The notes under the pieces were generated by a model. That model had not been told where the DNA came from. It searched no databases and saw only the letters and a list, made by a program, of their open reading frames with translations. A stretch of DNA of 64,000 nt, taken from the IMG/VR virus record IMGVR_UViG_3300010430_000007, positions 69,912-133,911 of that record; one strand, given 5' to 3'. Positions 2,955 through 39,997 of this stretch are shown here, piece by piece. The first letter of the stretch is position 1, and each line of letters begins with the position of its first letter. The DNA is from a virus. Both the position numbers and the translations under genes were made by a program.

Positions 2955-3122
2955 TTAATACTGTACATATTCTATTTCATTATCTTTTAGTGTCTGTATG
3001 ACTTCGTTATATTCGTTTAATGATGATAAATTAATAATGTCTGTTAATTGTTCAGATGTTAATGTGATTGCGTCTAGTGAGTCCTCTGGTTCTAATACTG
3101 TTAATTTTGATAATTCATTCAT
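2955..3122 (-). CDS. hypothetical protein (55 aa)
   Basis: GAGGAG RBS on the minus strand, MNELSKLTVLEPEDS...IEYVQY*. Confidence 0.5.
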   Translation of the reverse strand: MNELSKLTVLEPEDSLDAITLTSEQLTDIINLSSLNEYNEVIQTLKDNEIEYVQY

Positions 3123-3396
3123 TTTAAAAATCTCCTCTCATTGCTACTTTAGGCAACTGTTGTAGTTTTCTACTGTTATAGAATAAAAATTGTTACGCGG
3201 TCATTTTGAGGTGCTGTTCTAGGTGTTCTGTTCAGTGAGCTGTTATAGGACTCGTGCTGTTATAGAAAGTATAACATATCTCACTCTGATGTCAAGGATA
3301 TTTGATATAGATGATAATCAATATAGATAGTTGTCAATCTGAATGTATAGGTGATTATCTATGTAACCACCTATTGATGATTGTATATATTTGCTA

Positions 3397-3942
3397 TTAC
3401 TTATATTTTCTTTTAAGTTGTCCGACTATTCTATTTACTTTCGTTTTCCATGATTTATAATCCCCGTCTTCATTTTCGTTGTATTCTAAATCCATTTCGT
3501 AATATTCACAACTGTCATATAACACATTGATACCTTTTGATTTAAGATAGTTACCAATCATTTCTTGAGTATCTTCATCTTCAACACTCAATGTTAAAAC
3601 TGCTGTAGCGTATGGTGATAATGTCTCCCATAGTTCTTCTTCATTCCATTCTAATTCTGGTTCAATATGCTCAAGTTCAAAAGTGATTGATTGAGATTTC
3701 TCAATTTGTTTTTCTTCTTTAACTTCTTCAACCTTTTCAATTACTGCAACCTCTGCTGTGTCAGCTGTACATTCAAACATATCTAAATCGTTATTGTTTA
3801 AGTGTTCATATCCTTCTGTAGAAATCCATACTTTATTAAATTCATCTGATAGGTCGTAGATGATACCAGTAACTTTTCTTGAGTTGTTGTAAACTGCTGT
3901 AACCTCTTGTCCTATTGAAAACTTATCGTAAATATTTGTCAT
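3397..3942 (-). CDS. hypothetical acidic protein
   Basis: AAGGAGG RBS, 181 aa; divergent TTGGCA-17-TATAAT promoter near 3990-4020. Confidence 0.65.
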   Translation of the reverse strand: MTNIYDKFSIGQEVTAVYNNSRKVTGIIYDLSDEFNKVWISTEGYEHLNNNDLDMFECTADTAEVAVIEKVEEVKEEKQIEKSQSITFELEHIEPELEWNEEELWETLSPYATAVLTLSVEDEDTQEMIGNYLKSKGINVLYDSCEYYEMDLEYNENEDGDYKSWKTKVNRIVGQLKRKYK

Positions 3943-4140
3943 TTGAATGACCTCCTTGTATTTGTGTTTCTCTCTTAACTCTTAACTAATTATAACATAT
4001 AAAAGAGGTTTGTGCCAAAAAACTTTTAAAAATAATAAAAAACTTTTTAAAAAAATATCTAATTATTTTCAAAAAAATCAACTATTTTATATGAAAGTGT
4101 GGTATAATAAGTTAACGAATTAATTAAGGGAGATTTAAAA

Positions 4141-4575
4141 ATGGATTATAAAAATTACTTTAAAAATAAGAAGAGTCAAAGAGAAGACAAAATAGTGGAA
4201 ACGGTAGAAGAGTTTAACTTTGAACCAATGAATAGAGCTATTGAAGCTGTAAGAAATATACTTTCAGAGTATGAACTATGTGACTACGTTTTAAACGAAG
4301 ATATTAGAGAAGAAGCGAACGGTCAATATATTACACATTCTAAGACAATTGAAGTTAAGTCTACCACTACATACAGAGACTGTTTGCATGAAATAGGACA
4401 TCATATACACCATGTATATTTTAGAAATGAAGCTTTAAGAATACCAAGAACAACTGACTATAGCAGAACAAACCACAAAGAAGCTTTTGCTGAAGCATTT
4501 AAATTTTATGTATTAGGTATTGAATCAATGGCGTCACACAATAGAATGAGTAAATTGATGGAATCTATTAAATAG
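4141..4575 (+). CDS. small zincin metallopeptidase (HExxH; ATLF/ImmA-like)
   Basis: CLHEIGHHIH motif and downstream KEAFAEAF glutamate motif. Confidence 0.6.
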   Translation: MDYKNYFKNKKSQREDKIVETVEEFNFEPMNRAIEAVRNILSEYELCDYVLNEDIREEANGQYITHSKTIEVKSTTTYRDCLHEIGHHIHHVYFRNEALRIPRTTDYSRTNHKEAFAEAFKFYVLGIESMASHNRMSKLMESIK

Positions 4576-4586
4576 AATTAATGATT

Positions 4587-4613
4587 GAGGCTCTTGTGAG
4601 TCTCTTTTATTTT
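4587..4613 (+). terminator. intrinsic terminator
   Basis: GAGGCTC-TTGT-GAGTCTC plus TTTTATTTT. Confidence 0.65.
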
Positions 4614-5352
4614 TAGAGAACATATAGACAAATAGAGATATGTGAGTATATCGTTCAAACGCCACTAGGGCTTATAGACTGTCGTCTATATTTGTATTGG
4701 TGAATATATTTATGAATAGATGTGAATGAATATGATGTAGATTGATGAGGTTAGATATAAGAGGAGATAAATATATATGGTAGTCTATGTATGGTATATA
4801 GATAAGTATTGATGTGTAGTGTATAGAAGGCTGTCTATAGTTATATATGTATGTGTATGAATGTGAGTCAGATAGATATCAGTGAATATAGATAAGAGTA
4901 TATATTGGTAAGGGTAAATATAGGTGAATGTATATATGTATATATCTATGAGAGTCTATGTTGAACATATAGACAAGAATAGATATTTGAATATTAGTAT
5001 GTGTGAATGTGTATAGATATTGATACAATTATATATGTGCGTGTGTAGATATGTATGATGGTAAATATATAAAGATGTGAATGTTTGGATATTATAATAT
5101 AGATAGGATTGAATATAGATATGTTTAGATATAGATGATATATAATATGTAATGAGCACAATGTGAAATGATTATAAATAGATATATAGGTGAGTGTTGA
5201 TATTAGTATACATAGATAGCTATCCATTCAATCGCCATTCAGGCTTTTAGATATTTATATATTATGATATGTATATGTGAGTATTGTTAACTGTTCAGTG
5301 TGATTGGGTTAACATATGGATAGATAGATAATAATAGATGTGATAAGTAGGC

Positions 5353-5451
5353 TGTGGATAATGTGGATAGAATTGTGGATAAGTATATAGGTTGTGGATA
5401 TGTTAATATGTGGATAAGTGTGTGGATAACATGTTAGTAATATGTGGATAA
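5353..5451 (-). promoter_or_regulatory. DnaA-box cluster (5 perfect plus 2 single-mismatch boxes)
   Basis: TGTGGATAA (=TTATCCACA on minus) at 5353, 5374, 5409, 5421, 5443; TGTGGATAG at 5362; TGTGGATAT at 5393. Confidence 0.85.
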
Positions 5452-5512
5452 TAAAATAGGTGATAATGAATACATCTGAATGAAAATTCTTGTTACCAAT
5501 TCGATATGCAAA

Positions 5513-5528
5513 TGTTTCACGTGAAACA
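5513..5528. promoter_or_regulatory. parS site (Spo0J/ParB binding)
   Basis: perfect palindrome TGTTTCACGTGAAACA matching the Firmicute parS consensus. Confidence 0.9.
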
Positions 5529-6563
5529 TTAATCAGTATCAATATGAGACTAATATATCAATTAATTCAAATATATCTATATATCACACAAAATGTCACA
5601 CAATCCACCAGATTCTCACAGATTCTAGTAGATATTAGCAGATAATAATAGAATGGATTATGCAGTGAATATAGTTGTATGTATTGGTATAGCTTGATTG
5701 TAGGCTATTATAGTGTGATTGTATGTACTGTGTATAATATAGTATTATCTACAGTAGTATTATGGTACAAATAGTGGGTAAATGGCTGAGAGTGAGTGAC
5801 AGCAATGGTTAGAAGGGTAGGGGTACTTTTCAAATATAGATAGTTGTCTATTTGTGGAAATTTCAATGAGTAGTTCCACCTCTACACCTTAACTAAATCC
5901 AACTACGGTATCGGTATATTTACACTTAAATCTCAATTTATTCTATTTTCAACACTTATCACACACTCAACACTTAATCTGAGTTGATTTCAACTCACTT
6001 TTTCTATTCTCATGTACACAATTGTCCACTATCGTCCTATCATGTCCATTTCAACATACTCACAGGTTAGTCACTCAACTAACTAACCTCATTTATATCA
6101 TTTTTCATCGATTAAACATGTACTCACACAACTTTATTTTCTACCCTACTCATACTACCTTCAACAACATATATCCTCTCTAACCCTTTGTATAATCACA
6201 GAATTAACTCACAGAATTCATCTACACCTACATCATTCCCAACTCACCTAACCCATATCAACTTTTCATCATATTTAACATTTTTATATAAAACGACACT
6301 GTGATAATATAAAGAGGGGTTACTTTCAAATCTAACCACCCTTCCTATATCCATACACAACCATATACTTACGTATAACAAAACTTAATTTCTCACCATA
6401 CCATTATACCTAATCAACACTATCTCTTCTCTAACATGCTATTCCATCGACGTAATTAACCGTAGAATTGATTTTACACGCTACTACAATCCCACAAACA
6501 TTTCACCTGTTTCCTTTATAATAGAACACAGACAATCTTCATGAAACTATTTTCAAATATCTC

Positions 6564-6592
6564 TTGACAAACTGTATTTAATATGCTAGTAT
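6564..6592 (+). promoter_or_regulatory. sigma-A-type promoter
   Basis: TTGACA-17nt-TAGTAT with TG extension. Confidence 0.7.
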
Positions 6593-6623
6593 TAGTTGAT
6601 GATAAAAATAAGGAGGAATAATA

Positions 6624-6905
6624 ATGGAACAGCACAGAGAATTACATGATAAAACTGGCGAGCAGTTAAGAAGTATTCTAGGAGATTATACTCAACTAGG
6701 TTCAAAATCAGCATCAGCATATTGGGTTGGAGTAATTGAAACTTTTTTACTAAACGAAAAATCTATTCAAGAATTATATTCATACGCATCAAAACTATAT
6801 GAAGTTGAAGATGAATTTGCCAAATATAGAAATGATGCCAGAAGGGATGTTGGTGAAGATTTAAAGGAGAATGAACATGAATCAAATAACAATCATAGAC
6901 TTTAA
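6624..6905 (+). CDS. hypothetical protein
   Basis: AAGGAGG RBS, 93 aa. Confidence 0.6.
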   Translation: MEQHRELHDKTGEQLRSILGDYTQLGSKSASAYWVGVIETFLLNEKSIQELYSYASKLYEVEDEFAKYRNDARRDVGEDLKENEHESNNNHRL

Positions 6906-7197
6906 TTTAATAAGTGAAATAAGAACAAGAATCAGAGAATATTCAAAGATTAAAAATAGTGTCTCTATAAGAATGGAATCTTTACTGAGTTATGGTAATA
7001 AAGAATTATTATCACTAACAAACAATATTCCAGTTTTAATTGACGGAAATGTAGAAGGACATATACAAGATGGAAATATAATATTATATGACACATTATT
7101 AGAAGGTATACAAATTTCAGATTATAAATTTTATCCATACGTTGTAGTTGAGCAATGTCAAGAGTATATCAGTGCGGTCGAGTTTAGAAAGGAATAA
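6871..7197 (+). CDS. hypothetical protein
   Basis: AAGGAG RBS (start may be 6877), 108 aa. Confidence 0.55.
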   Translation: MNMNQITIIDFNLISEIRTRIREYSKIKNSVSIRMESLLSYGNKELLSLTNNIPVLIDGNVEGHIQDGNIILYDTLLEGIQISDYKFYPYVVVEQCQEYISAVEFRKE

Positions 7198-7203
7198 TAA
7201 ATA

Positions 7204-7647
7204 ATGAATAAATACAGAGGAGAATGCTTAAACTTAAACAAAACAGTGTATGGAGATTTAATAACGGTGCAGGATACGCATAGGATTAGAGAATATTCAA
7301 GATTTACTTCTAACGAATATCTAGTAGATTCAAATACTATATCTCAATACACAGGATTGGGTGACACCAATTGTAAAGATATTTTCAACAACGACAAAGT
7401 AGATTTCTTAGGGATGAAAGGTGAAATTTGCTTTGAGTGCGGTGCTTTTGGAATAGGCTTTGTTGACTCAATTGACTACGACCTAATTCAAAAAGAAATG
7501 GATTCTAGACATTGGTGTTGTGGAAACGAATATAGCGGAATATTTAATGATAACTTTATTTCACTATGGGAAATCTATTGGAATTTTAAATGTGAAGAAG
7601 GGGCTGTTGACGTAGTGGAAATTTTGGAGGAGAATAATAATGGTTAA
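7204..7647 (+). CDS. YopX-family protein
   Basis: KYRG...VYGDL...SQYTGL.D.N.KDIF..D pattern typical of YopX. Confidence 0.75.
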   Translation: MNKYRGECLNLNKTVYGDLITVQDTHRIREYSRFTSNEYLVDSNTISQYTGLGDTNCKDIFNNDKVDFLGMKGEICFECGAFGIGFVDSIDYDLIQKEMDSRHWCCGNEYSGIFNDNFISLWEIYWNFKCEEGAVDVVEILEENNNG

Positions 7648-8134
7648 AATCAAACTGAATAAAAAAGGATACGTATATAGACACTGCAATTTACTAGAAG
7701 ATAAAGACTCAGAAGTGACAATGTATTCATATGAAGAAGTAATGACTACAAAAGATTTAACAGAAAGACAAAAACAATTGCTTGAATTAGATAGAAGATG
7801 TGTGATTTTCTATGGTCTCGTAGAAACTACAGATGAAAGTAGACCTTATCACACCGTTGGTGTATATGACATTTATGAAGAACAGGTTAAAGAACTAAGT
7901 GAAGACTTGACCACTGAAAAAATAACTAAGCAATCAAATCTAGAATTAACAATTACAATTGATACTGATGGTGTGAAGAAAGAAATAATTGACGCACTTG
8001 AGAGAAATAAAATCAGATATGATTTAGAAAATGTTAGATTGGTTAATAGTTATAAGAAGCATTACGTAGATATTTACGTTGGAGACGATTGGATTACAGA
8101 TGCAGATATTTCCGACTATATCAAAATAAACTAA
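7640..8134 (+). CDS. hypothetical protein
   Basis: GGAGGAG RBS, 164 aa. Confidence 0.55.
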   Translation: MVKIKLNKKGYVYRHCNLLEDKDSEVTMYSYEEVMTTKDLTERQKQLLELDRRCVIFYGLVETTDESRPYHTVGVYDIYEEQVKELSEDLTTEKITKQSNLELTITIDTDGVKKEIIDALERNKIRYDLENVRLVNSYKKHYVDIYVGDDWITDADISDYIKIN

Positions 8135-8184
8135 CCCTCCCGGGGCGTACTTATGAAATTATAGGTGCGTCTTTTATTATGTGC

Positions 8185-8294
8185 TTGACAAATAGGTGAA
8201 AATATGATAGTATTAGTTGAGCTCAGAAATAATATAGAAAATCCATAAATATTTCAATAAAACACTTGACAAAACTATAAAAGTATGGTATGAT
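8185..8294 (+). promoter_or_regulatory. tandem sigma-A-type promoters
   Basis: TTGACA(8185)-17-TAGTAT and TTGACA(8266)-17-TATGAT, both with TG extension. Confidence 0.7.
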
Positions 8295-8336
8295 ATTATT
8301 GTAAGTGAGAATAATATAAAAGAAAAGAGGGAATAT

Positions 8337-8624
8337 ATGAGTTATACACCAGAAGAAAGAGAAGTTGTATTACAATGGGATGAAGAAAGCAAACAATGGG
8401 ATTTTTATAGTAGAGTTCGAACCTTCAACACTAAAGTGTCAAAACTTAAAGGATTTGAAGAATCGCATCGAGAAACTACCGAGTCTGGAGTAATTACTGA
8501 GTTAAGAGGTAAGCTACCTACCAAGTGCATCTCGTTTAGAAATCATCGAGAAAAAGTCGAGCTCTCAGATGAAGAAAGAGCAATTCGCTCTGAAAGAGCT
8601 AAGAAGAATTTTGCGAAGAAGTAA
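8337..8624 (+). CDS. conserved phage hypothetical protein upstream of the RNA polymerase
   Basis: GAGG RBS, 95 aa. Confidence 0.6.
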   Translation: MSYTPEEREVVLQWDEESKQWDFYSRVRTFNTKVSKLKGFEESHRETTESGVITELRGKLPTKCISFRNHREKVELSDEERAIRSERAKKNFAKK

Positions 8625-8961
8625 ATGTACAGCAATCTCACGTTAGCTGTGAGAAGAGATAATATAATTTTGGTATTAGACTATGGCGAGACAATTAAAT
8701 TGATTAGAGAAAGGACAAGGTAATGTAAAATGACAGAATATTATGATGTAGACAGAGTAGTAGGTTATGTAGAAAAGAGAGAAGGATACATAGCGATTGA
8801 GAATGGATTTAAGAAAGGTGTTGAGACCTGTGAGTGTGGTGGCAGTTCTGATAAATATGGACGATGCGACTGGTGTGGAAAAGTTGTAGAAGAATATTAA
8901 ACAAAACATTAATACATTCAAGTATGAATATACAAATAAAAGACAGAAAGGATGTTGAGTA

Positions 8962-11544
8962 TTGGCATTAAATAAACAAGTACACATTTATAGTGTAGAC
9001 ACAACAGCATTTTATACAGACGAGGAAAAAAGAATATCAGAACCGTTATCCATACTGTATCAGAAAAGATATGAGATTAAGAAGATTTCACAAGAAGAAA
9101 GAACTGAAGAACAAAAGAGAATATATAAGTTGATAAATAAAAGAATATCGACTATAAAAGAAAACCTTAGAAATGAGTTTAAAAGTAGCAGTGTGATTAG
9201 AGAGCTAAATGAAACTCATATGGTTGATAAGAATATTGTCTCTGTATTTGAGTCAGACTTAACAAGAACTGCACAATTCGAAACAAATGAAGTTACAGAC
9301 GATATTTTAATAGTTAGAGCGTTTTATTATGATGTTTTAGAAAGTTTGATTGTTGATGGATTCATCTATAAAAATGAAAAGTATAAAATTTTCACAGCAT
9401 CGGCTGGTCAAATAAGAACAAAAAAGACTGTATTTATAAAAGAATCACTGTGGAATAAATATGAGAAGACTTTAACTTGTGGACTTACTCTAGATATTAT
9501 CAATAGTCGTGGTGGAATGAATGTTAATAAATATTTAGCTTATTTAGCACTAACGAATAGTGCAACAGATTTGTGGCAAGATTTCGATATTGACAGATGC
9601 ATAGTTGTTGATGATTTTGAAACTACATTCAAAACAATGGTAGATTATATTGATGAGAAGACTTATAAAATAGATACTTTGGTCGAAAAAGATGTTACAA
9701 TTCCTCATATGGATGGATGCGGGATACACTTGCCAAAAGTGAATAGAAAGCCATTCATGGTAAGAATGCCTTGGGTAAAAGGTTTATTGGTTCCAATGCA
9801 GTTTAATTCATTCGTTAGAGAAAATTTGGAAGATAATCCTAGTTGTTCAAAAATAAAAGATATTTATGGAAAAGAGTATGATATATTCAAAGATGATATA
9901 CAAATCATTTTCACAAAATCTCAATTCAAGATGCACAAGTTTTACAATTCTTGGAATGAATATAAAGACAATTTTAAAAAATATAATTGTAGTGCTGGAG
10001 TTTGTAATGAGGAACCTGATAAGATTAAGAACGCTAAAATAAACTATCAGATGATGCAAACATTGGAAGATATGACAGAAGATGAATTAATAACCGTCTG
10101 TGAAAAAATTAATTTAGATATTCACAATATATCAAGAGACAGAGATACGATGCTTAAAGTTTTAGGAGTACACGAATATAATACCGAGAAAAATAGTTTG
10201 CAACAGGCACTTGAAATATACCCCGAGCTACTTCAAGATGAACATTGTAGACAAACACTTAGGGATATTAGGAAGAAAATAGTGAAAGAAGGTAAATCTG
10301 GAAGACTTCCAGTTGATGGGAAATATACATTTTTAATACCTGACTTAGTAGCATTTTGTGAATGGCTATTCTTAGGCATAGAAAATCCAAAAGGAATACT
10401 CGAAGACGGTGAGGTTAGCTGTAAAATGTATTCGGATGAAAAAGAATTAGATGTCTTAAGGGCTCCTCACTTATACATGGAGCATGCAATAAGAAAGAAC
10501 ATAATCAATAAAGATACAAAAAGATGGTTTATTTCCAAAGGAATATATACGAGTGCACATGACCCAATTTCTAGAATACTCCAATTTGATGTAGATGGTG
10601 ATAAATCATTGGTTGTGCAGGACGAAACCATTATTAATGTAGCCAAAAGAAATATAAAAAAACATAATATTGTGCCTCTTTATTATGATATGGGCAAAGC
10701 AAATCCAGAGAAATTGAGTAATAGTGTATTATACAAAGGTATGATTAACGCATATTCAGGAGGAAACATAGGAGCTATTTCAAATGATATCACTAAAATA
10801 TGGAATAGCGATGGAGACATAAAAGAAAAACTCACTGTGATTAGATACTTATGCATGGAGAATAATTTTGTAATTGATTACGCAAAAACATTGTATAAGC
10901 CAACTCGACCAGATGATATAAATGAGCTAATAAGAAGTTACACTAAATCAAAAACTCCAAAATTCTTTATGTATGCAAAAGATAAGAATGAACACCAAGT
11001 AGAATGCATAAATACATCTACAGTTAACAAGCTTGAGAACATAGTCAAAAACAAGCCATTTAAATTTAACAGTGAACAATTAGGAAAATTTGATTTTAAA
11101 AAATTAAAGAAGAACAAGATAAGAAAAATAAAAGACTCAGACAAAGATTTAATTGATGCTTATGTAAAGTTGAATAGAAACAAAAATAGATTTGACTACA
11201 ATACAAACACATACACTTATACTTATAATAAAATAAGGAATGAATTGTTAAATTTTAACAATGATGTTTATGATTTGCTTGATGTTTTAATTGAATATCT
11301 ATTTCCAAAAAAGTGCAGTAAGCTCTTATTATTTGAGTGTTTTGGGGATGAGATTGTTAATAATTTAAATAATAATATTGATAAGAAAATTGGAAAGAAT
11401 TATATAATGTGTAAGGAATGTGGAAAAAGAGTTGAAAAAGAAAACAATAGAACTATTTATTGCAAACTGTGTTCAGAAAAAATACAACAAGAACAAAAAA
11501 ACAGGTGGAAAAGAGAAAATTGGCTTGTTAAGGAAGAAAAATAG
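8962..11544 (+). CDS. yonO: YonO-like single-subunit DNA-dependent RNA polymerase (RdRP-like double-psi-beta-barrel)
   Basis: N-terminus LNKQVHIYSVDT like SPbeta YonO; catalytic FDVDGD motif; RAPH and MDG motifs; C-terminal CxxC...CxxC. Confidence 0.9.
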   Translation: MALNKQVHIYSVDTTAFYTDEEKRISEPLSILYQKRYEIKKISQEERTEEQKRIYKLINKRISTIKENLRNEFKSSSVIRELNETHMVDKNIVSVFESDLTRTAQFETNEVTDDILIVRAFYYDVLESLIVDGFIYKNEKYKIFTASAGQIRTKKTVFIKESLWNKYEKTLTCGLTLDIINSRGGMNVNKYLAYLALTNSATDLWQDFDIDRCIVVDDFETTFKTMVDYIDEKTYKIDTLVEKDVTIPHMDGCGIHLPKVNRKPFMVRMPWVKGLLVPMQFNSFVRENLEDNPSCSKIKDIYGKEYDIFKDDIQIIFTKSQFKMHKFYNSWNEYKDNFKKYNCSAGVCNEEPDKIKNAKINYQMMQTLEDMTEDELITVCEKINLDIHNISRDRDTMLKVLGVHEYNTEKNSLQQALEIYPELLQDEHCRQTLRDIRKKIVKEGKSGRLPVDGKYTFLIPDLVAFCEWLFLGIENPKGILEDGEVSCKMYSDEKELDVLRAPHLYMEHAIRKNIINKDTKRWFISKGIYTSAHDPISRILQFDVDGDKSLVVQDETIINVAKRNIKKHNIVPLYYDMGKANPEKLSNSVLYKGMINAYSGGNIGAISNDITKIWNSDGDIKEKLTVIRYLCMENNFVIDYAKTLYKPTRPDDINELIRSYTKSKTPKFFMYAKDKNEHQVECINTSTVNKLENIVKNKPFKFNSEQLGKFDFKKLKKNKIRKIKDSDKDLIDAYVKLNRNKNRFDYNTNTYTYTYNKIRNELLNFNNDVYDLLDVLIEYLFPKKCSKLLLFECFGDEIVNNLNNNIDKKIGKNYIMCKECGKRVEKENNRTIYCKLCSEKIQQEQKNRWKRENWLVKEEK

Positions 11545-11775
11545 AAATGCCTTTGAGTCATTGAAATCACTACAATCTTTACTTATTAAGAATCGTGCAA
11601 TTGCAATACATGTAGCCGAACCCATTGCAATTACTAAGTTCTTTATGAAATATTGATAAGAATCGATTGGAACTTAGGGAAGAAAGAGTCTACATTTGCT
11701 CCAATCTACAAATATATTCAGGAATTGTAGATTCGAGTATTCCTAAACAAAAATGGAGAGAAAGAGGTAAACAAT

Positions 11776-12048
11776 ATGAACAGAGCAGAATTAGTAAAAG
11801 AGTACGCAGAACGAATGGACATGAAACAAACAGAGTCAAAAGTAGCTATTGAAACTTTAGAGTCAATTATATTATCAGTGCAAGATTTAAAAGATGAAAA
11901 TGAGAGCGTTAAATTTGCTAATGCGACATTTAGTTCGAAGTTCGTTGAGGACAAATCTGGTGAGGTTAACGGTAAGCCATATCACACACCAGCACATCAC
12001 GAAGGAACCGTGAAGAGAACTGGTAAAATGAAAGATATGTATAAGTAG
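11776..12048 (+). CDS. HU-like DNA-binding protein (YonN position)
   Basis: MNRAELVKEYAERMDM...KVAIETL...SVKFANATF pattern; directly after yonO as in SPbeta. Confidence 0.75.
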   Translation: MNRAELVKEYAERMDMKQTESKVAIETLESIILSVQDLKDENESVKFANATFSSKFVEDKSGEVNGKPYHTPAHHEGTVKRTGKMKDMYK

Positions 12049-12180
12049 AAAACCAACGGAGAGTTGATTAATTTCGGCTCTCCTACAATAATATATTGAA
12101 ACATACTTTGGAGAGAGTGTGCGTTTGAGTATATTGTAGAAATACAAAATAAACAACCAATTATACAGAAATGAAAGGAA

Positions 12181-12585
12181 TTGGTGAAGAAAATGTGTAA
12201 TAAATATCAAGAACATTCAAAAACTAAAGACTATTCTAAAAAGGATTTGGTTGACAAATGCAATCTAATCAACACGGATTACACAGGAAAAATAAAAAAT
12301 AAGCAATGCTTAGTGTGCAGAAATGGTTGCCCAGATATGCAGTTTAAATTAACTGGAGAATGCAATAACTTCAATCCAAGAATGACACTCAGAGAATTAA
12401 ATAGAGAAATTTCAATTCAAAATGTTAATCTTAGAAAACTATGCAAAAAGCATGGGCTTAAATATGGAAAATTAAAAGACATGCTCTCAAATCGCAGAGC
12501 GTTATTATACGATTACTATACAATATTAGAAAATAGGCTTAATGAAAAGTATGAATTTATAGAATACATTCAGAAAGAGGCTTAG
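12181..12585 (+). CDS. hypothetical protein (Cys-containing N-part, HTH-like C-part)
   Basis: 134 aa ORF in the operon. Confidence 0.55.
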   Translation: MVKKMCNKYQEHSKTKDYSKKDLVDKCNLINTDYTGKIKNKQCLVCRNGCPDMQFKLTGECNNFNPRMTLRELNREISIQNVNLRKLCKKHGLKYGKLKDMLSNRRALLYDYYTILENRLNEKYEFIEYIQKEA

Positions 12586-14025
12586 ATGTGTAAGAATAAA
12601 ACTAAAAAGAAAATAGACAACAATTATATAAAAATGCTAGGAGAATCTTCCGAAGCAGTCACTGGAAGTCAATTCCTTGTTCAGTGGGCGGGATACAAAA
12701 TATTATTGGAGTGTGGTTTTTACCAAAGCAACTGCGTTGAAAAAGACTATATGGTGAACGCGTCTAACTTTAATTTTAAAGCGAAAGAAATTGATTTCGT
12801 GTTCTTACTCCACAATCATTGCGATCATGTGGGAAAAACTCCAAAGTTATACAAGGATGGATATGCTGGCAAAATATTAATGCCTGTTAAATCCAAGCCA
12901 ATTACAAAGATTATGCTTGAGGATTCTGCACATATAATAGAAAAAGACAGAACATTTCTAAACAAACGTTATAAAAAGAAATTAAATCCAATTTATACTA
13001 CAGAAGATGTAGATAGAACTATTAATAATATAGTTGAATATGATTTAGAAGTCGAGCATAAAATAAACGATAATATTAGTTTTATCATGTATCCAAGTCA
13101 GCATGTACTTGGCTCTGCACAATTACTATTAATATTAACTCAAGGTGGAAAAAGAAAGAAGATATTATATACATCTGATTTAGGAAACACTAAATTTGGT
13201 CATACACCGTACGCTTCTGATTTTGCACCTGTAAAGAACGCGAATATAGTTTTGGGTGAGAGCACCTACGGGTCGTCTAAAAAGTCATGTAGGTCTAAAA
13301 AAGACAGGGATAAAGATATAGAAAAGATTAAGTCAGCCGTAAATCAATTTGTTATTGATAATAAAGCGAAATTACTAATCCCAGCATTTAGTTTTCATAG
13401 AACTCAAATAATGCTTAAATATATCTATGACTTGTATCAAGACCACCCAGAAGATTTTGATGTCGTTATCGACTCACCAATGGCTATAAAAGTGACAAAA
13501 GAATTCTCTAATTTATTAGAAGGTCAAGAAAAAATAGAATTTGACAAAATGATGAGTTGGAAGAAGCTAAAATTTGTAGATGATTGGGAAGCAAGTGAAA
13601 TGTGTGCTAAAAGTGATAAACCAATGGTTATTATTTCGGCTTCAGGAATGATGTCGGCAGGTAGAGTGGTAAACCATACTGCTCATATTATAGAGGATGA
13701 GAAATCAGCTATAATGATTTGTGGATATGCATCTCCAAATACAATGGCGGGTGTTATCAGAGAAGGTAAAAAGAAATATATTAAAATTGGTGAAGAAACT
13801 TATAAAAACAAAGCACAATTGATTCAACTTAGAACAATGAGTTCGCATATGCAACACGGAGAATTATTAAAGTATTACAGTGGGATTAATTATGATTCAC
13901 TTTATCTTGTGCATGGAAATGGAGATAGAGCTGAATTCAGAGATGAAATAGAAGAAAAATTAAGAAGTAAGAATAAGACTTCATCTGTATTTTTAGGTGA
14001 AAAAGATTTGATAATAGAACTATAA
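12586..14025 (+). CDS. metallo-beta-lactamase/beta-CASP family nuclease
   Basis: LECG, HNHCDH, HVLGS, YTSDLG, GESTYG, SSH and LVHG motifs in canonical order. Confidence 0.85.
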   Translation: MCKNKTKKKIDNNYIKMLGESSEAVTGSQFLVQWAGYKILLECGFYQSNCVEKDYMVNASNFNFKAKEIDFVFLLHNHCDHVGKTPKLYKDGYAGKILMPVKSKPITKIMLEDSAHIIEKDRTFLNKRYKKKLNPIYTTEDVDRTINNIVEYDLEVEHKINDNISFIMYPSQHVLGSAQLLLILTQGGKRKKILYTSDLGNTKFGHTPYASDFAPVKNANIVLGESTYGSSKKSCRSKKDRDKDIEKIKSAVNQFVIDNKAKLLIPAFSFHRTQIMLKYIYDLYQDHPEDFDVVIDSPMAIKVTKEFSNLLEGQEKIEFDKMMSWKKLKFVDDWEASEMCAKSDKPMVIISASGMMSAGRVVNHTAHIIEDEKSAIMICGYASPNTMAGVIREGKKKYIKIGEETYKNKAQLIQLRTMSSHMQHGELLKYYSGINYDSLYLVHGNGDRAEFRDEIEEKLRSKNKTSSVFLGEKDLIIEL

Positions 14026-14092
14026 GAGGTTGTGCACCGTCGTGAGACAGGAGCTTCTAATCTCAAATAAATGCGAAGGAGAGAGCGTATAT

Positions 14093-14956
14093 ATGGATAG
14101 AAGAGATAGGATGACACTGTCTGCGATACAAAATAGAAAGAAAAACAAAGGTAGTTATAGAGAGGTATTTAACAACATTATTGGACTAGTTTTATCAAGA
14201 GACGAGAGTAGAAAGCAATTAAAAGGCGTTGAGAACTATCTAAATTACAAGCTAGAAAACGATGAAAAAGTAAAGGAAACTGATGATATTAAGCCAAGAT
14301 TAGTTGTGAGTGACTTGCATTTACCTTTCGCAGTGGACGGGTGGTTAGATTTTATCATCAATACTCATGAGAAATACAACTGCCACGAGGAATTAATTAT
14401 TAATGGCGATTTACTAGACCTTCACCAATATTCATTCCACGCTTCTGAAACAGATGCTATGAGTGGAATAGACGAATTCGAAAAAGCAAAAGAAGATATC
14501 CAGAAATTAGTAAGTGCATTCCCAAAAGTAAAATTAACTATGGGCAATCATGATTTCATAATTATTAGAAGAATGAAAGAAATTGGTATTGACCAAAGAT
14601 TCATGAAGACATTTCATGAGTTGTTAGACTTACCTGACACTTGGGAGATAGCTGATGATTTTATTGTAGATAATGTTTATTACAAGCACATTGGATGTTG
14701 TGGTGGTAAAACTGGACACATCAATAGCGCAATATCAAATAGAATGAGTACAGTTTCATCACATCTTCACGCAAACGGAGGAATTAGTTATGTAACTAGT
14801 CCGACAGGTGAAAGTATCTTTGGATTAAACACAGGTGCTTTGGTTGATGATAATGCATATGCTTTGAGATATGGAAAACATAGTAGATTCAAGAGTACAT
14901 TAGGATGCGGACTTGTTTATTCTAATAAAGAAGCATACTTCGTTCCAAAAATTTAA
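14093..14956 (+). CDS. calcineurin-like metallophosphoesterase
   Basis: SDLH, GDLLD, GNHD, HLH motifs; AAGGAG RBS before ATG 14093. Confidence 0.85.
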   Translation: MDRRDRMTLSAIQNRKKNKGSYREVFNNIIGLVLSRDESRKQLKGVENYLNYKLENDEKVKETDDIKPRLVVSDLHLPFAVDGWLDFIINTHEKYNCHEELIINGDLLDLHQYSFHASETDAMSGIDEFEKAKEDIQKLVSAFPKVKLTMGNHDFIIIRRMKEIGIDQRFMKTFHELLDLPDTWEIADDFIVDNVYYKHIGCCGGKTGHINSAISNRMSTVSSHLHANGGISYVTSPTGESIFGLNTGALVDDNAYALRYGKHSRFKSTLGCGLVYSNKEAYFVPKI

Positions 14957-15027
14957 TAAGATAAAACAAAGAGTGTATCAATTTAGGTACACTCTATTTA
15001 TATTTGCAAGAAAGGAGAGACTTGCAT

Positions 15028-15627
15028 ATGACACAATTTTTACAAACAAGAGACCCAATTATTCAAGATATTTTATTAAACGCACAGCAGTTTGAGCGAA
15101 AAGTTTATATCATTGAAGAATTTGATAGAGAGTCTATTTTTAAAGTTATTAGAGCCATTGAAAAGATAGTTGAAGTTGATTCTTTTGATGAGATTAAACC
15201 TGAAGACGCTGAACCGATTTGGCTAATGTTAGATTCGTATGGAGGATGCTTACATTCATGCTTTGGATTAATTTCTACAATTAGACGTTTTCAGAAAATT
15301 GGATATAAGTTTTATACTGTAGATATGGCTAGAAGTATGTCTGCTTCGTTTTATGTAGCTATGACTGGTGATAAAAGATTTGCATATGAATTGTCTAGTT
15401 TAATGGTTCATGACCAAAGAGCGTTTGAATATGGATATAAAACAGTAAGAGATAAGAGAGTTGAACTTAAGGAATGGGAAAAAGAATGGAATATACTAAT
15501 TGAACTAGTTGAAGAATACACTTTAATCACAAGAGAACAACTTGAATGGTATGTTGAGCGTGGATTAGACTGGAATATGACTTCACAAGAGGCAATAGAG
15601 CTTGGAGTCATCGACGAAATTCTATAG
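15028..15627 (+). CDS. ClpP-like serine protease
   Basis: DSYGG, ARSMSA (Ser), LMVHD (His), DWNMTSQEA..LGVIDEI (Asp). Confidence 0.8.
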   Translation: MTQFLQTRDPIIQDILLNAQQFERKVYIIEEFDRESIFKVIRAIEKIVEVDSFDEIKPEDAEPIWLMLDSYGGCLHSCFGLISTIRRFQKIGYKFYTVDMARSMSASFYVAMTGDKRFAYELSSLMVHDQRAFEYGYKTVRDKRVELKEWEKEWNILIELVEEYTLITREQLEWYVERGLDWNMTSQEAIELGVIDEIL

Positions 15628-15638
15628 GAGGAGAGACT

Positions 15639-16007
15639 ATGGAAGATAGATTACAAAATAAAGAAATCGAAGCACAACAAGTGGAAATGACTGAAGAAGA
15701 TTTGATGAAGTTGTTAGCTGGCGGAGATTCAACTCAACAGCAGACTGAGTTTATTTTTCAACCAGTAGAGTTTGATGATGAGCAGTTAAATGAAATTGTT
15801 AATACCAAAGAATTTATTGAAGGTTCTGCTATTGGAGCAAGATTAGCGGGAATCTACTGCACAATGACAAACTTGGGTGTTGATGTCAGAACAGTATCAG
15901 ATTTATTAATTAATCTTCAAACGCTTGAGAAAAATCAAGAGTTACAGAAGGTGGTAAATGAAGGGTATAGATATCAATCGCAAGTAGGAAAACAACAGCA
16001 ATTATAG
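15639..16007 (+). CDS. hypothetical protein
   Basis: GGAGGAG RBS, 122 aa. Confidence 0.6.
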   Translation: MEDRLQNKEIEAQQVEMTEEDLMKLLAGGDSTQQQTEFIFQPVEFDDEQLNEIVNTKEFIEGSAIGARLAGIYCTMTNLGVDVRTVSDLLINLQTLEKNQELQKVVNEGYRYQSQVGKQQQL

Positions 16008-16259
16008 TTAACAACATGTGGGAGACTAACCATCTCCCACTTACAATGAAATACGAATTTTATCGTACTTTTATACATATCTCAGGGAGGCTTTTACCGT
16101 TGTGTGAACTCTCTCTCCGACATTTCGGTGAGGGTAGCTTTGGGGTATGTATATGAGTATGATTGTAACACAGGATAGAGAATGCAACTCGAAAGCATAG
16201 CAACCTACTATGTTTCCTGTGTTTATTATAATAGGGGATTATCTGAGGAGATGATTGGG

Positions 16260-17243
16260 ATGAAGAAGAAAACGGAAGAAGAGTTTGTAACTGAATCTAA
16301 AAATATTCATGATGATTTTTATACTTATGACAAAGTAGAGTATATAAACACAAGAACCAAAGTTATAATAACATGTCCAGAGCATGGAGATTTTAAACAA
16401 ACTCCATCAAGCCACTTAAGTGGAAGTGGGTGCTCTGAATGTAGAAAGTCTAAACTTAGTAATAGATTTCGATTGAAAAAAGAAGATGTAATTGAAAATA
16501 TAAAAACAGCGAATAGCAATATAGGTATAAAAGAGTTTGATTATTTAAATTGCAAAGTTAAAATACCTGTGTTTTGCAAAAAGTGTGGTTACGAATGGAG
16601 CACACAATATGGGGTATTATTAAATGGTCATGGCTGTCCAAAGTGTGCAGGGAATGTTAAAACCGAGTTTAAAGATTTGGAAGAGATTATTAAAAATACA
16701 AAATTAAATGCAATTATATTAAGCAAAGAAAATGAATATAAAAATTCTTCAACCAAAGTTTTATTAAGTTGTAATATTTGTAACGAGTCTTGGAGCACTA
16801 CATATTCAAAAATAAAATATGGATACGGCTGTCCAAAATGTTCATTAATAGGAAGAAGTGGCAAGAGGCACTATAACTACAATGAAAATTTAACAAGAGA
16901 GCATAGAGAAGGAAAAAGACTTGGAGATGGTTCTGACAACCAAGATAAATGGAGAAGGAAAGTTTTTAAAAGAGATAAATACACTTGTTTTATTACAGGA
17001 AGAGCGGGAGGTTCGTTAAGAGCTCATCATTTAGACGGATACAATTGGAATGAAAATGGTAGATTTGACATAAATAATGGAATAACTTTAACATGTGAAA
17101 TTCATAATGACTTCCATAGAATATATAAAAAAGGAAACAATACGAAGGAACAATTTGCAGAATATTGTAAAATATATCACAATATAAATTTTGAAGAAAA
17201 ATATAATGAGCTATTGAGTCAATATGAGAGAGGTGATTTATAA
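16260..17243 (+). CDS. free-standing HNH homing endonuclease with Zn-finger (DUF723-like) repeats
   Basis: three CxxC..H/C-G-C-xx-C repeats; C-terminal LRAHHLD...NGITL...HNDFH; GAGGAG RBS before ATG 16260. Confidence 0.8.
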   Translation: MKKKTEEEFVTESKNIHDDFYTYDKVEYINTRTKVIITCPEHGDFKQTPSSHLSGSGCSECRKSKLSNRFRLKKEDVIENIKTANSNIGIKEFDYLNCKVKIPVFCKKCGYEWSTQYGVLLNGHGCPKCAGNVKTEFKDLEEIIKNTKLNAIILSKENEYKNSSTKVLLSCNICNESWSTTYSKIKYGYGCPKCSLIGRSGKRHYNYNENLTREHREGKRLGDGSDNQDKWRRKVFKRDKYTCFITGRAGGSLRAHHLDGYNWNENGRFDINNGITLTCEIHNDFHRIYKKGNNTKEQFAEYCKIYHNINFEEKYNELLSQYERGDL

Positions 17244-18247
17244 TGGCTACTAAAGCACAAATAGATAAAGCAAAACAAACATTATTATTAGAAGACTATC
17301 AAATAATGAAACCAAATGAATTAAAGTGCATTTGCTGTGGTAAGACACGTAGCGTTTGGGAATCTTCAAATTGGATAATGTCAAATTCTCCTTTGCATAA
17401 AGGAAATGAAGCATTATACAAATGGAAGCCAAAAGACAAAGACCCAGAGACTAGAATGCAATCGTTTGCACCAACTTGTAGAAGATGTATAGAAGGAATA
17501 TATTTAAAAGACGCAGATTTGCCAGATTTAATAGAATCACTTAGAATACTTGATAAGCCATATAAAAAAGATATATGGGATAAAATAGTATCTGAAAAAG
17601 GACATAGAATGAAGCCTATAAGTATGTTAGGTGAGTATAATAGCAATCTAATGATGAATCATAGGGATGAAACATTTAAAGATAGTGATGACTATTCAGA
17701 TGAAAACTCAAAAGTAGAAAGTTTTGATACAGACGGAACATTCCTTAAAAAACGTGAAAAAAAAGAAGCTGTAATGAGATGGGGAGTCAATTGGACTGAA
17801 TTTGAACTTATGAAACTTGAAGAATTTTATCATAACATGAAAAGAGCTAATAAGATAGAGACACCACAAGATGAGGATTATCTAAAAAAACTAGCAAGAC
17901 TATCGGTTAAAATCGATAATGCGTTAGATGGAGGAGACGGAAACCCAAAACAATTGGGAGACTTGTATTCTAAGTTTATGACAGATTCGAAATTTAGAGC
18001 AATGGATATGACAGACGCAGATAAACAGGGTGGAATTAGAACCTTTAGTCAAATATACGCAGAAGTAGAGTCTCCTGACTTTATTCCTCCTTGGGAAAAG
18101 TATGCTAAATTTTTAAATGTAGGTCAGGATTTAATAGACAAGACAATAATGCATATAGAAAACTTTACTCTAAGGTTTAATAATGCTGAAAGAATGGCGA
18201 TGCCACCTGACAATACTCCTAAAAATGGAGATGATTTAGATGAGTAG
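17243..18247 (+). CDS. Zn-finger protein upstream of terminase (YonG-like, possible small terminase)
   Basis: CICCG...CRRC; overlaps the terminase start; SPbeta-like synteny. Confidence 0.5.
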   Translation: MATKAQIDKAKQTLLLEDYQIMKPNELKCICCGKTRSVWESSNWIMSNSPLHKGNEALYKWKPKDKDPETRMQSFAPTCRRCIEGIYLKDADLPDLIESLRILDKPYKKDIWDKIVSEKGHRMKPISMLGEYNSNLMMNHRDETFKDSDDYSDENSKVESFDTDGTFLKKREKKEAVMRWGVNWTEFELMKLEEFYHNMKRANKIETPQDEDYLKKLARLSVKIDNALDGGDGNPKQLGDLYSKFMTDSKFRAMDMTDADKQGGIRTFSQIYAEVESPDFIPPWEKYAKFLNVGQDLIDKTIMHIENFTLRFNNAERMAMPPDNTPKNGDDLDE

Positions 18248-20027
18248 TTTTTTAAACTTTTCAAAAAAAGACAGAAGTAAAAAAGACAGTGATTATAGTT
18301 ATAATCCACAGAATATAGAAAATAGAAAAGTAAACGAACAACAACTAGAGGGATTTGAAAAAGTAAGAGATAAGTGGACTATGCTTTGTAGTTATTTCAG
18401 AAGATATCCAGACCATTTTTTAGATATGATACAGCCAGAAGACGCAAAAATAAAATTATATTGGTATCAAAGGATTTATCTTAGAATAATATTTAGATAT
18501 AGAAAAGTTTTTCTGACCGCAACACGTGGTACTTCTAAATCTTTTTTATTGAACTTAGCATTTGTGTTGCTGTGTATAATGTTCCCACGGACTAAATTGT
18601 TCACTACCGCCGTCGGAAAAGAGCAAGCCGCAAAAATAACCCAAGAATGTTTAGATGACATTTTTGAATTCTATCCTCTGTTGAGAAAAGAAATTAAAAC
18701 ATATACTGCAAGTAAAGATTACACCAAATTGGTATTCTATAATGGAAGTAAGTATGATGTTGTACAAATGAGGGATTCTACTCGTGGTGGTAGAAGAAAC
18801 GGTGGTTCAATAGAAGAAATTTGCGATAAGAAATTTGATGGGGATATGTTGAATGCAGTAGTTATTCCATTAATGGCTAATGATAGAGTTGCAATGTGTG
18901 GTAAAGTAGACCCAAATGAAGTACACAAGAGAGAAATATATATAACAACCGCATCAACAAAACAACAGTTTGCTTATGAAAAAGTATGCGAGATAATGTC
19001 TGATATGATAAATGGCTCTTCCGCATTTTGCTTTGGAAACTCATATGAATTGCCTTGTCTGTATGGGCAGTTGGACATAGATTTTATAGAGGAAAAAAGA
19101 GAGTCTCCAACTTATAGTATACTAGATTTTATGAGAGAATATGAGTCAATTTATACTGGTTCGAACTCAGACAGTTTGGTTTCAGATGACAAGCTTAGAA
19201 AATGCAGAATTGTAAAGAATGCTGAATGGGAGCATTGTGGAGACAAGAATGTAGATTATGTATTAGCTTATGACGTATCTCGTAACGAAGGCGATGAAAA
19301 TGCATTATCTGCCCTTGTTGTAATAAAAATAACTAGAAGTGGCAATAAGTATATAAAAGAAGTTGTTAATATATTTTCAATGGAAGGTCAACATGATACT
19401 TGGCAAGCAAAATTTTTAAAAGATAAAGTAAGAGACTTTGAGGCTAGGATACTTGTAATTGACGCAAACGGCATAGGTTCGGGAGTTGTTGACCAGCTTG
19501 TATTAGATTTAGATGATGGGAATCCACCTTATAAAGTAGTAAATGACGAAAAAGAACAGTGGAAAAGATATGAATCACCAGATGGAATTCCGGTGGTGTT
19601 TGCATTAAAAGCCCAAAATAAAGAAACTAAAAACAGCGACATGATTAACCATTTTATGAAGTTATTTAATAAACTAGATGTTGGATTGTTAATTTCACCA
19701 CATGAAGGAATCAAAGAGTTAGAAAAGAAAAGAAGAAAGAGATTTTCAGAAGATGAATCTGAAGAACGAGCTATAGCTGAAATTCCGTATATATTAACAA
19801 ACCTGCTATCAGAAGAGATAATGAACTTAAGATATAAACAAAAAGGAAATTCAACAGAAGTGGAGAGAGTGTCTAGGAGAATTCCTAAAGATAAGTTTTC
19901 TGCACTGCTATATGGTTTATTTTGGATTCATTTGCAGGAAAGAGAATTTAGAATAGCAAAAAAATCATCATTTGATGTATCAAAATTAGTAGGTGTAATG
20001 AAAACACCTAACTTAAGAAAAAGATAA
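18240..20027 (+). CDS. terL: terminase large subunit
   Basis: ATRGTSKS Walker A, GGSIEE Walker B, nuclease LAYDVSR, DANGIG and KDKFSAL. Confidence 0.88.
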   Translation: MSSFLNFSKKDRSKKDSDYSYNPQNIENRKVNEQQLEGFEKVRDKWTMLCSYFRRYPDHFLDMIQPEDAKIKLYWYQRIYLRIIFRYRKVFLTATRGTSKSFLLNLAFVLLCIMFPRTKLFTTAVGKEQAAKITQECLDDIFEFYPLLRKEIKTYTASKDYTKLVFYNGSKYDVVQMRDSTRGGRRNGGSIEEICDKKFDGDMLNAVVIPLMANDRVAMCGKVDPNEVHKREIYITTASTKQQFAYEKVCEIMSDMINGSSAFCFGNSYELPCLYGQLDIDFIEEKRESPTYSILDFMREYESIYTGSNSDSLVSDDKLRKCRIVKNAEWEHCGDKNVDYVLAYDVSRNEGDENALSALVVIKITRSGNKYIKEVVNIFSMEGQHDTWQAKFLKDKVRDFEARILVIDANGIGSGVVDQLVLDLDDGNPPYKVVNDEKEQWKRYESPDGIPVVFALKAQNKETKNSDMINHFMKLFNKLDVGLLISPHEGIKELEKKRRKRFSEDESEERAIAEIPYILTNLLSEEIMNLRYKQKGNSTEVERVSRRIPKDKFSALLYGLFWIHLQEREFRIAKKSSFDVSKLVGVMKTPNLRKR

Positions 20028-37690: not shown

Positions 37691-38713
37691 ATGAGCAAAG
37701 ATTATGATAAGCATATGTTGAGAGAAAGAGCAGAGAGAGCACCTGATATCACTGATGAAATGTGGTCGCAGGTATCAGAACACAATAGAATGATTGTAGA
37801 CGAATTCTTTGAATCTAGTTCTCATCTATCTAAAACAAGTATCTCACAATATAAATCAGCATTGAGAATATTCTTTTGGTGGGTACATGTAAAACTAAAA
37901 GACAAACCAATGTATAATATTAAAAAGAGGGATTTCTTAAAATATGTTTCTCATTTAAAAGATAAAGGATTTTCATCAAGTGGATTAAAACTAAAGAAGT
38001 CTGCTGTAAGTAGTTTATGTAACTTTATAGAAAATGTATTATCTGATGACGAGGAATTTAAAGAGTATGAAAAGTTTAGAAATTTCTGTAGAGGCTTACC
38101 AGCTCAGTCTTCAAATGTAGTTTATGAAAAGATTCCAATGACAAGAGAAGAATATGATAAAGTTATGGAGTACTTAAAAGAAAAAGAAGACTATTTAGGA
38201 ATGGCTTTTCACGCTACATCATTTAATGTTGGTGGTAGAAGAAATGAGATTAGAAACCTCAAGAGTGAAATCGCAACTTATGAAAATGAAAAAGATAGTG
38301 AAGGAAATGAATTGCCGTTTGTATTATCTCATATAGTTTATGGCAAAGGTAGAGATGGCGGAAAGCCATTAAAGTTTATGATTAATAATGAGGCTATGGA
38401 ATACATTAGACTATGGTTAGAACAACGTAGGTATGAGAATGAGTATATATTTACAGTTAAATATGCAGGAAACAATAGTCAGATTGGACTTAGTTGGGCA
38501 AATAATTTCTGTCAGAATATAGTCTCGATTGTACTAGACCGTAGATTTACAATGCATAACTACAAAGCATCTGCAATTACTCACTTACTTGAACAAGGTG
38601 TTGACATGAAAGCCGTATCTAAATATGTGGCCCACCACGAAAACTCTGCAACCACTGAGAAATTCTACGACCTTCGAAGTGACGAAGAAGAAAAGAATAG
38701 TATTTTTAAATAA
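37691..38713 (+). CDS. tyrosine recombinase (YomM-like)
   Basis: N-terminal SAM-like region (YKSALR.FF); GGRRNE (R), GKG (K), HNYK, VAHH...TTEKFY (Y). Confidence 0.85.
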   Translation: MSKDYDKHMLRERAERAPDITDEMWSQVSEHNRMIVDEFFESSSHLSKTSISQYKSALRIFFWWVHVKLKDKPMYNIKKRDFLKYVSHLKDKGFSSSGLKLKKSAVSSLCNFIENVLSDDEEFKEYEKFRNFCRGLPAQSSNVVYEKIPMTREEYDKVMEYLKEKEDYLGMAFHATSFNVGGRRNEIRNLKSEIATYENEKDSEGNELPFVLSHIVYGKGRDGGKPLKFMINNEAMEYIRLWLEQRRYENEYIFTVKYAGNNSQIGLSWANNFCQNIVSIVLDRRFTMHNYKASAITHLLEQGVDMKAVSKYVAHHENSATTEKFYDLRSDEEEKNSIFK

Positions 38714-39920: not shown

Positions 39921-39997
39921 GCAGGATTAGCATAGTTGGTTAATGCAGACGGCTTATATCCGTAAGAGGAGTGGTTCAATTCCACTATCCTGTACCA
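39921..39997 (+). tRNA. tRNA-Ile (anticodon UAU)
   Basis: 77-nt cloverleaf: GCAGGAT/ATCCTGT, GCAT/ATGC, loop CT-TAT-AT, AGTGG-TTCAATT-CCACT, A73, encoded CCA; one G-A mismatch in the anticodon stem. Confidence 0.85.

Follow-up and report, generated by a model that had tools for sequence, protein, structure and literature searches.

Why would a large phage with no recognisable gene for DnaA or ParB carry a tight row of DnaA boxes and, close by, a perfect parS site, and what might the corresponding proteins of its bacterial host do there? The sites lie in virus record IMGVR_UViG_3300010430_000007, a 133,911-bp genome that is rated complete and has a 123-bp terminal overlap; the window referred to throughout is the stretch of 64,000 nucleotides that we analysed (bases 69912-133911 of the record), and positions are those of the window unless given as genome positions. 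The description of the phage as SPbeta-like is borne out by two of its products, an 860-aa YonO protein (8962-11544) with 45-51% identity to proteins of the SPbeta group and of Clostridium phage D-1873, and a 595-aa YonF-type terminase (18240-20027). The relatives of this phage are phages of Bacillota. To our knowledge, no replication origin has been mapped and no initiator is known in the SPbeta-like phages, and the use of host ParB by phages has so far rested on the phi29 family.

The box array, the parS site and the surrounding non-coding region

The features of the region are as follows.

4610-5352, + strand: C-poor arm with 5% C and 22% G on the + strand, many TAGATA/ATAGAT words and 16-nt periodic repeats
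5245-5284, no strand: AT-rich 40-mer, in the top 0.1% of the genome for instability and on the side where the trio-like stretch lies; candidate unwinding element
5320-5352, - strand: trio-like stretch beside box 1, TTATCCACA-GC-CTA-CTT-ATC on the - strand, i.e. 3'-GAT-GAA-TAG-5' on the + strand
5353-5451, - strand: seven co-oriented DnaA boxes in 99 bp, TTATCCACA on the - strand and TGTGGATAA on the + strand
5513-5528, no strand: perfect chromosomal-type parS, TGTTTCACGTGAAACA, starting 61 bp past the last DnaA box
5546-5585, no strand: second AT-rich 40-mer with instability in the top 0.1% of the genome, right of parS by 18 bp
5729-5753, both strands: two DnaA boxes in inverted orientation, each with one mismatch, TTATACACA (- strand) and TTATCTACA (+ strand)
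5861-6560, + strand: G-poor arm with 6% G and 26% C on the + strand, preceding the late operon
6564-6592, + strand: sigma-A-like promoter, TTGACA-17-TAGTAT with TG, opening the operon that runs to a yopX-like gene and yonO

An earlier sequence-only reading had reported five exact and two one-mismatch boxes within 99 bp on one strand, with a perfect parS 61 bp further on, and we recovered all of these at exactly the same coordinates. The exact boxes start at 5353, 5374, 5409, 5421 and 5443, and the one-mismatch boxes are CTATCCACA at 5362 and ATATCCACA at 5393; start-to-start spacings are 9, 12, 19, 16, 12 and 22 bp, and the boxes at 5353, 5362 and 5374 are separated by only 0 and 3 bp. The parS site matches the consensus TGTTNCACGTGAAACA at 16 of 16 positions and forms the core of a perfect 20-bp palindrome (5511-5530). 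With five of the seven boxes exact, array and parS alike are consensus sites of the host type, as had been proposed.

Elsewhere the genome is poor in both elements, with a single further exact DnaA box (genome 130832) and no second parS with fewer than two mismatches in the whole genome. When 300 sequences of 20 kb were generated by a Markov model with the local C-poor composition, the biggest same-strand box cluster contained four boxes, and this was seen once, versus the seven observed; parS matches with up to two mismatches are expected 0.15 times per window. We regard it as fairly likely, judging from the sequence, that selection has shaped both as sites for binding host DnaA and ParB.

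The sites had been placed in non-coding DNA, and this also stands: the segment 4610-6560 has no family-supported ORF and is bounded by a terminator (4587-4604) and by a promoter plus ribosome-binding site (6564-6623). Rfam gave no match at E<=1 across 3900-7000, blastn found no similar DNA in cultured phages, and the plasmids of PLSDB include no similar origin, with matches that are short and at the level of single boxes. The segment comprises two arms of opposite composition flanking the sites. Within the C-poor arm, a motif common to the relative L013 is present twice (4655-4680 and 5225-5250), and the 16-nt periodic repeats (4872-4937 and 5088-5148) are loose, at 65-80% matches. The G-poor arm includes a 20-mer (6142-6161) that is identical in L013, and a further motif, GGGGTACTTT, has one copy at 5819-5832, just left of this arm, and another inside it at 6315-6334. 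The two AT-rich 40-mers are the two least stable near the module, one on each side.

Three independent assemblies from other samples (L142, L143 and L144) are 99.99-100% identical to the window. L142 (ENA ERZ27250939) spans window positions 3081-18643 with one mismatch, at 17978, and L143 and L144 cover 5427-14156 and 7321-13932 respectively. Samples containing the phage include ERZ27250939, ERZ27250982 and SRR5579861. Because these further assemblies agree so closely, the locus is not a chimeric host fragment; misassembly of a piece of host chromosome, which had been named as a possible refutation, was checked, and the outcome was in favour of the locus. Misassembly and host contamination are ruled out by the three assemblies together with the phage genes on both flanks.

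A genuine phage sequence could nevertheless be a non-functional remnant, either of recently captured host origin-proximal DNA or of chance sites in biased sequence, and the region is indeed repeat-rich and strongly biased in composition, with the sites lacking from the closest relatives (see below). However, chance is excluded by the Markov control and the parS expectation, neither dnaA/dnaN nor other host genes were found flanking the sites, and the consensus is still present in five of seven boxes and all parS positions. Moreover, the + strand of the array is nearly free of C (1%), as in the surrounding C-poor arm, and the orientation of the boxes follows the C-free strand of this arm; that all of the boxes keep the + strand C-free favours evolution in place over a recent host insert. 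Given also the reproduction of the sequence at 99.99-100% in three further assemblies and the independent appearance of the same pairing in at least nine unrelated phage groups, we consider a remnant very improbable.

Neither dnaA nor parB had been seen in the window; this held and extends to the whole phage, with ParA absent too. Six-frame family searches of the whole 133.9-kb genome gave zero matches to Bac_DnaA, ParB_N or the AAA_31/CbiA ParA families, although control genomes did match, so that no cognate parB or parA was found on the same replicon as parS. PolIII-alpha, a DnaB-type helicase and a RecJ-like exonuclease are encoded on the - strand in the other half of the genome, and the phage thus has a replisome but lacks a recognisable initiator. 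Since there is no dnaA, parA or parB, yet there are seven boxes and a perfect parS, the most likely interpretation of the sequence is that the phage would recruit the replication initiator and the chromosome-segregation protein of its host onto its own DNA.

Comparison with bacterial and plasmid origins

How such recruitment would serve the phage is a separate question. The explanation that we tentatively prefer, while giving it somewhat less than even chances, is that the locus would combine an origin dependent on host DnaA with a loading site for ParB, within the main non-coding control region of the phage. Host DnaA-ATP would bind the seven co-oriented, closely spaced, high-affinity boxes, oligomerise in one direction, and open the DNA to the left of the array, through the GC spacer and the A-centred triplets to the AT-rich tract at 5245-5284. 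The opened DNA would be the entry point for the phage DnaB-type helicase, primase and PolIII-alpha, such that the array could act as the phage origin, or as one of several, with no need for an initiator of its own. Host ParB might load at the single parS as a CTP clamp, spread over the region, and tie the phage DNA to the origin-proximal ParB/SMC domain of the host; the phage DNA would then be positioned and inherited with the chromosome, and would pass into forespores too if the host sporulates, as shown for phi29.

The array had been described as an oriC signature, and we compared it with the oriC of Paenibacillus, in the dnaA-dnaN spacer (L139:2590-2630). Here TTATCCACA is followed by a degenerate box, CGC, the triplets CTA-TTA-CTA-TTA-CTA and AT-rich DNA, an order that agrees with the basal unwinding system described for Bacillota oriC (PMC8287927, PMC6669920). 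In the window the GC spacer, the triplets and the unstable tract are on the correct strand and side relative to L139, and there is a degenerate box, TGTGATAAG, at 5339-5347 within the trio-like stretch. The window and Bacillota oriC regions thus have in common tandem consensus boxes that are co-oriented and close, with a GC spacer, A-centred triplets and AT-rich DNA on the expected side. Unlike in those regions, the array in the window is not beside dnaA/dnaN, has all seven boxes on one strand and sits on a virus; it has only three consecutive triplets, and its AT-rich tract, at a distance of 69 bp, does not adjoin the box at 5353. A DnaA-trio element is defined by at least three trios (3'-NAN-5', consensus GAT) no more than 16 nt from a box, on the right strand and side (PMC8287927). 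The window has three, the minimum, after a 2-nt GC spacer, and we estimate that chance would provide these about as often as not. What stands of the oriC signature is therefore the anatomy (co-orientation, tight spacing, and flanks with the same polarity as in L139), whereas the triplets are easily met by chance.

Two features of the locus count against this reading. The local GC skew is positive and then negative, which is the reverse of the trace expected of bidirectional replication from the centre. A single parS is also fewer than phi29 or bacterial chromosomes carry.

Iteron-plasmid and P1 origins (i.e. RK2 oriV, R6K and P1 oriR) offer a second comparison, since they likewise have a box cluster beside AT-rich DNA and short direct repeats, and the window encodes a candidate for the protein component 2.7 kb from the cluster:

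1721-2659, + strand: tandem winged-helix protein of 312 aa (phrog_9501; model pLDDT 80)

This ORF has no sequence match in Pfam, including the Rep family, or in the PDB, and Foldseek returned nothing at E<=0.001. Its whole-length fold matches are to pi of R6K (2nra; Z 5.3, the best, by VIA), RctB (Z 4.2) and RepE54 (TM 0.30-0.38), all of them below the noise level stated for the tool; these three iteron-plasmid initiators are nonetheless the only matches that span both domains. Among its language-model look-alikes (Atlas) are some clusters in which RepL is found in 10-36% of members. We consider the protein a weak candidate for a plasmid-type Rep initiator on the basis of its modelled fold. 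The window differs from the plasmid origins in that the fold matches are weak (Z no higher than 5.3) and there is no Pfam Rep, the 16-nt repeats are only 65-80% alike, PLSDB contains no similar origin, and the phage is without partition genes of its own.

The proposition that the phage is maintained as a phage-plasmid found no direct support, there being no partition genes, no similar plasmid origin and, in the whole genome, two tyrosine recombinases; the same six-frame family searches revealed no large serine recombinase or serine integrase. One tyrosine recombinase (37691-38713) is located within the late region, and a tRNA-Ile(TAT) gene (39921-39997) and a 580-bp non-coding gap lie about 1.2 kb downstream of it; the recombinase and the tRNA gene may form an integration module or have a dimer-resolution function. 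The other is at genome 23427-24290.

SPbeta and the closest relatives

In SPbeta, the yonR-yonP interval immediately upstream of yonO contains the opening point of the genome and the pac site (bioRxiv 10.1101/2021.11.22.469490). The yonR-yonP gap of SPbeta resembles the gap in the window in that it precedes the yonO operon and separates two gene blocks of opposite orientation, and in its skew flip, which is the same but weaker, G-rich and then C-rich. It differs in length (about 950 bp versus 2 kb) and contains neither a DnaA-box cluster nor a parS. From its position we infer that the 2-kb gap in the window serves this type of phage as its pac and early-late control region.

Across SPbeta-like phages, the DNA upstream of the yonO operon keeps the mirror-image asymmetry, with almost no C on the left and almost no G on the right (window 4610-5352 and 5861-6560; L013:3990-5330; L016:2250-4700; SPbeta, L141:7797-8748). 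The asymmetry has the polarity of convergent transcription or of G-rich transcripts directed inward, and not that of a bidirectional origin. Several YonO-encoding phages also share, in non-coding DNA preceding their late genes, the motif (A/G)GGGGTACTTT(T)CA, which occurs at L013:4656 and 5097, L016:3801 and L014:1499, and which in the genome studied here is confined to the 2-kb gap. The copy in L016 takes the form of a stem-loop followed by a T-run, and the motif may act as a promoter element for YonO or as a terminator.

The relatives that we compared were YonO-anchored loci (L003-L006 and L012-L017) drawn from IMG/VR, GTDB genomes, JGI metagenomes and Logan/ENA. A box cluster is present in none of these, and a parS only in L016. 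The closest relative found is L013, a 124-kb Logan contig (YonO 70%); L014 has a YonO of 70% too. The gap in L013 is homologous to that of the window, with the same skew flip, the shared blocks ACGCCNTTCAGGCTT and GGGGTACTTT, and the identical 20-mer, and between the same anchors the boxes and parS are replaced by an array of GATAT units with 13/26-bp spacing (L013:4175-4248). It is possible that this is a binding array for a different protein, and a different repeat array at the same place is what would be expected if the specificity of an origin or an operator had been swapped. Global alignment of the central part with L013 gives 64% identity versus 60% for shuffled sequence and is hence uninformative.

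In L016 (YonO 56%), the identical 20-bp parS palindrome is positioned just upstream of the start of a - strand gene, beside a skew-flip gap of the same kind, and there is no DnaA-box cluster. Because the relatives other than L016 are without the sites, the module is lineage-specific among SPbeta-like phages, with parS seen twice; and because SPbeta and the closest relatives lack both sites, it is dispensable for this type of phage. Conservation in relatives, the lack of which the sequence-only reading had named as a refutation, gave a divided answer: the sites are missing from the nearest relatives, but the same parS is found in L016 and the pairing of box and parS recurs in unrelated phages.

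Recurrence in other phages and the roles it suggests

A perfect parS is present in at least 119 IMG/VR contigs. ParB_N is absent from 48 of the 50 parS-bearing IMG/VR contigs tested (from 14 of 15 among those with a completeness of 90% or more), and together with phi29 these provide a precedent for an orphan host parS. Of the contigs with parS, five large ones do not belong to YonO phages. At least 120 viral contigs have three or more exact DnaA boxes in the same orientation, and an exact box lies no more than 30 bp from a perfect parS in 25 IMG/VR contigs that fall into at least nine sequence-unrelated groups. By our own estimate (25 specified bases, and a collection assumed to hold ~1e11 bases) the number of such pairs expected by chance is far below one. 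The geometry of parS relative to the box array varies between phage groups. Group A has six to nine co-oriented boxes and a parS between an arm encoding a T7-type primase-helicase and SSB and an arm encoding terminase, portal and capsid. The members of group E are phi29-like, encoding a terminal protein and a protein-primed polymerase, and in them DnaA boxes flank a perfect parS; at L279:1170-1300, and also in L268, L272, L276 and L277, parS and boxes are just upstream of a consensus TTGACA-17-TATACT promoter. As replication in phi29-like phages is protein-primed and starts from the ends, and these phages nonetheless pair both sites, the pairing needs no origin function.

This makes a non-replicative role for the locus nearly as likely as an origin, although we consider it, too, rather unlikely when taken alone. 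Bound ParB and DnaA would either tether the phage DNA to the origin-proximal domain of the host, for hitch-hiking or spore entrapment, or sense and regulate early/late transcription or packaging according to the replication and sporulation state of the host. Besides the phi29-like phages, which need no DnaA origin, several arrangements fit such a role: parS is about 20-65 bp upstream of gene starts in L016 and L007, as an operator would be; the module of the window occupies the position of the SPbeta pac site and early-late control gap; and that of group A is flanked by divergent early and late operons and precedes the terminase. The precedent is phi29 itself, which has five host-type parS sites and undergoes Spo0J-dependent entrapment in spores (PMC2731898). 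Like phi29, the phage studied here carries an orphan parS of the chromosomal consensus, has no ParB and probably has a host in the Bacillota. It is, however, a 134-kb SPbeta-like phage and not a 19-kb protein-primed podovirus, has one parS rather than five, and has a seven-box DnaA array beside the parS and no accompanying Spo0A boxes. Spo0A boxes (TGTCGAA), the partner element in phi29, are not enriched, with 9 in the genome versus 12.4 +/- 3.3 expected and none in 4600-6600. It also counts against a regulatory or tethering role that 0.8-1.0 kb separates the sites from the closest recognisable promoters, and that a typical DnaA operator has fewer than seven co-oriented high-affinity boxes.

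The origin interpretation is given some weight by the lactococcal phages of the 949 group, which have a YonF-type terminase in common with the window phage. Lactococcus phage WRP3 (L265, NC_027341.1 21446-23998) contains an unannotated, divergent non-coding region of 2.55 kb with seven DnaA boxes, of which four share an orientation and are about two turns apart; AT-rich DNA and ~60-bp repeats come next. This type of box region is conserved in 21 records of the group and is probably their replication origin; in the 949-group literature that we searched, neither DnaA nor the box region is mentioned. An origin is thus favoured for the window by four lines of evidence: a replisome that is without an initiator, co-orientation, spacing and flanks of the unwinding type, the different array at the same place in L013, and the origin-like region of the 949 group.

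Box arrays of this density could also serve to titrate DnaA, as datA does in E. coli. In such a scheme the array, multiplied by the number of phage copies, would withdraw DnaA and stop new rounds of host replication, and parS would titrate or misdirect ParB/SMC. Multicopy box clusters in B. subtilis are known to titrate DnaA, and the phage would carry seven high-affinity boxes on a genome replicating to high copy number; dense arrays are common (the contigs with three or more exact co-oriented boxes noted above) and are present in the virulent 949-group phages too. Known DnaA sinks, on the other hand, have boxes in mixed orientation. The window shares with datA and the B. subtilis clusters a high-affinity cluster outside oriC that could hold many DnaA molecules, but its boxes are strictly co-oriented at 9-22 bp spacing, have an unstable flank, and are paired with parS on a replicating virus; co-orientation, tight spacing and an AT-rich flank are typical of arrays that unwind DNA. 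One parS would make a poor ParB sink, and the nearest relatives manage without the array. We therefore regard titration as improbable.

The seven-box array in the central control region is a concrete and testable candidate origin for SPbeta-like phages. The consensus parS known from the phi29 family is here present beside DnaA boxes in a 134-kb phage of another type, and uncultured phages of at least nine unrelated groups show the pairing too. A bolder generalisation, which we put forward as a fairly unlikely one, is that box arrays with host-type parS sites constitute a widespread and undescribed class of phage cis-modules that mimic the origin-proximal chromatin of the host. By means of these a phage with neither an initiator nor a partition protein would be replicated, positioned and inherited, or carried in spores, under the cell-cycle control of host DnaA and Soj-Spo0J; the module would double as the origin in the SPbeta-like phage, and SPbeta-like, T7-like-replisome, phi29-like and other phages would have evolved it independently. 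If the sites are functional, phages would commonly plug into the initiation and segregation circuit of the host via short cis sites alone, which would bear on carrier states, persistence in spores, shut-off of host replication, and the prediction of phage origins in metagenomes.

The right end of the window contains three further genes on the - strand. A fragment of an anaerobic ribonucleotide reductase gene (NrdD; 63206-64000) and a dUTPase gene (62693-63145) provide hints of an anaerobic or facultative host. Inside the phage there is also a TnpB of the IS605 family (61461-62675), with OrfB_IS605 and Cas12f1-like TNB domains, whose nearest homologues are only about 60% identical and have mixed Bacillota names.
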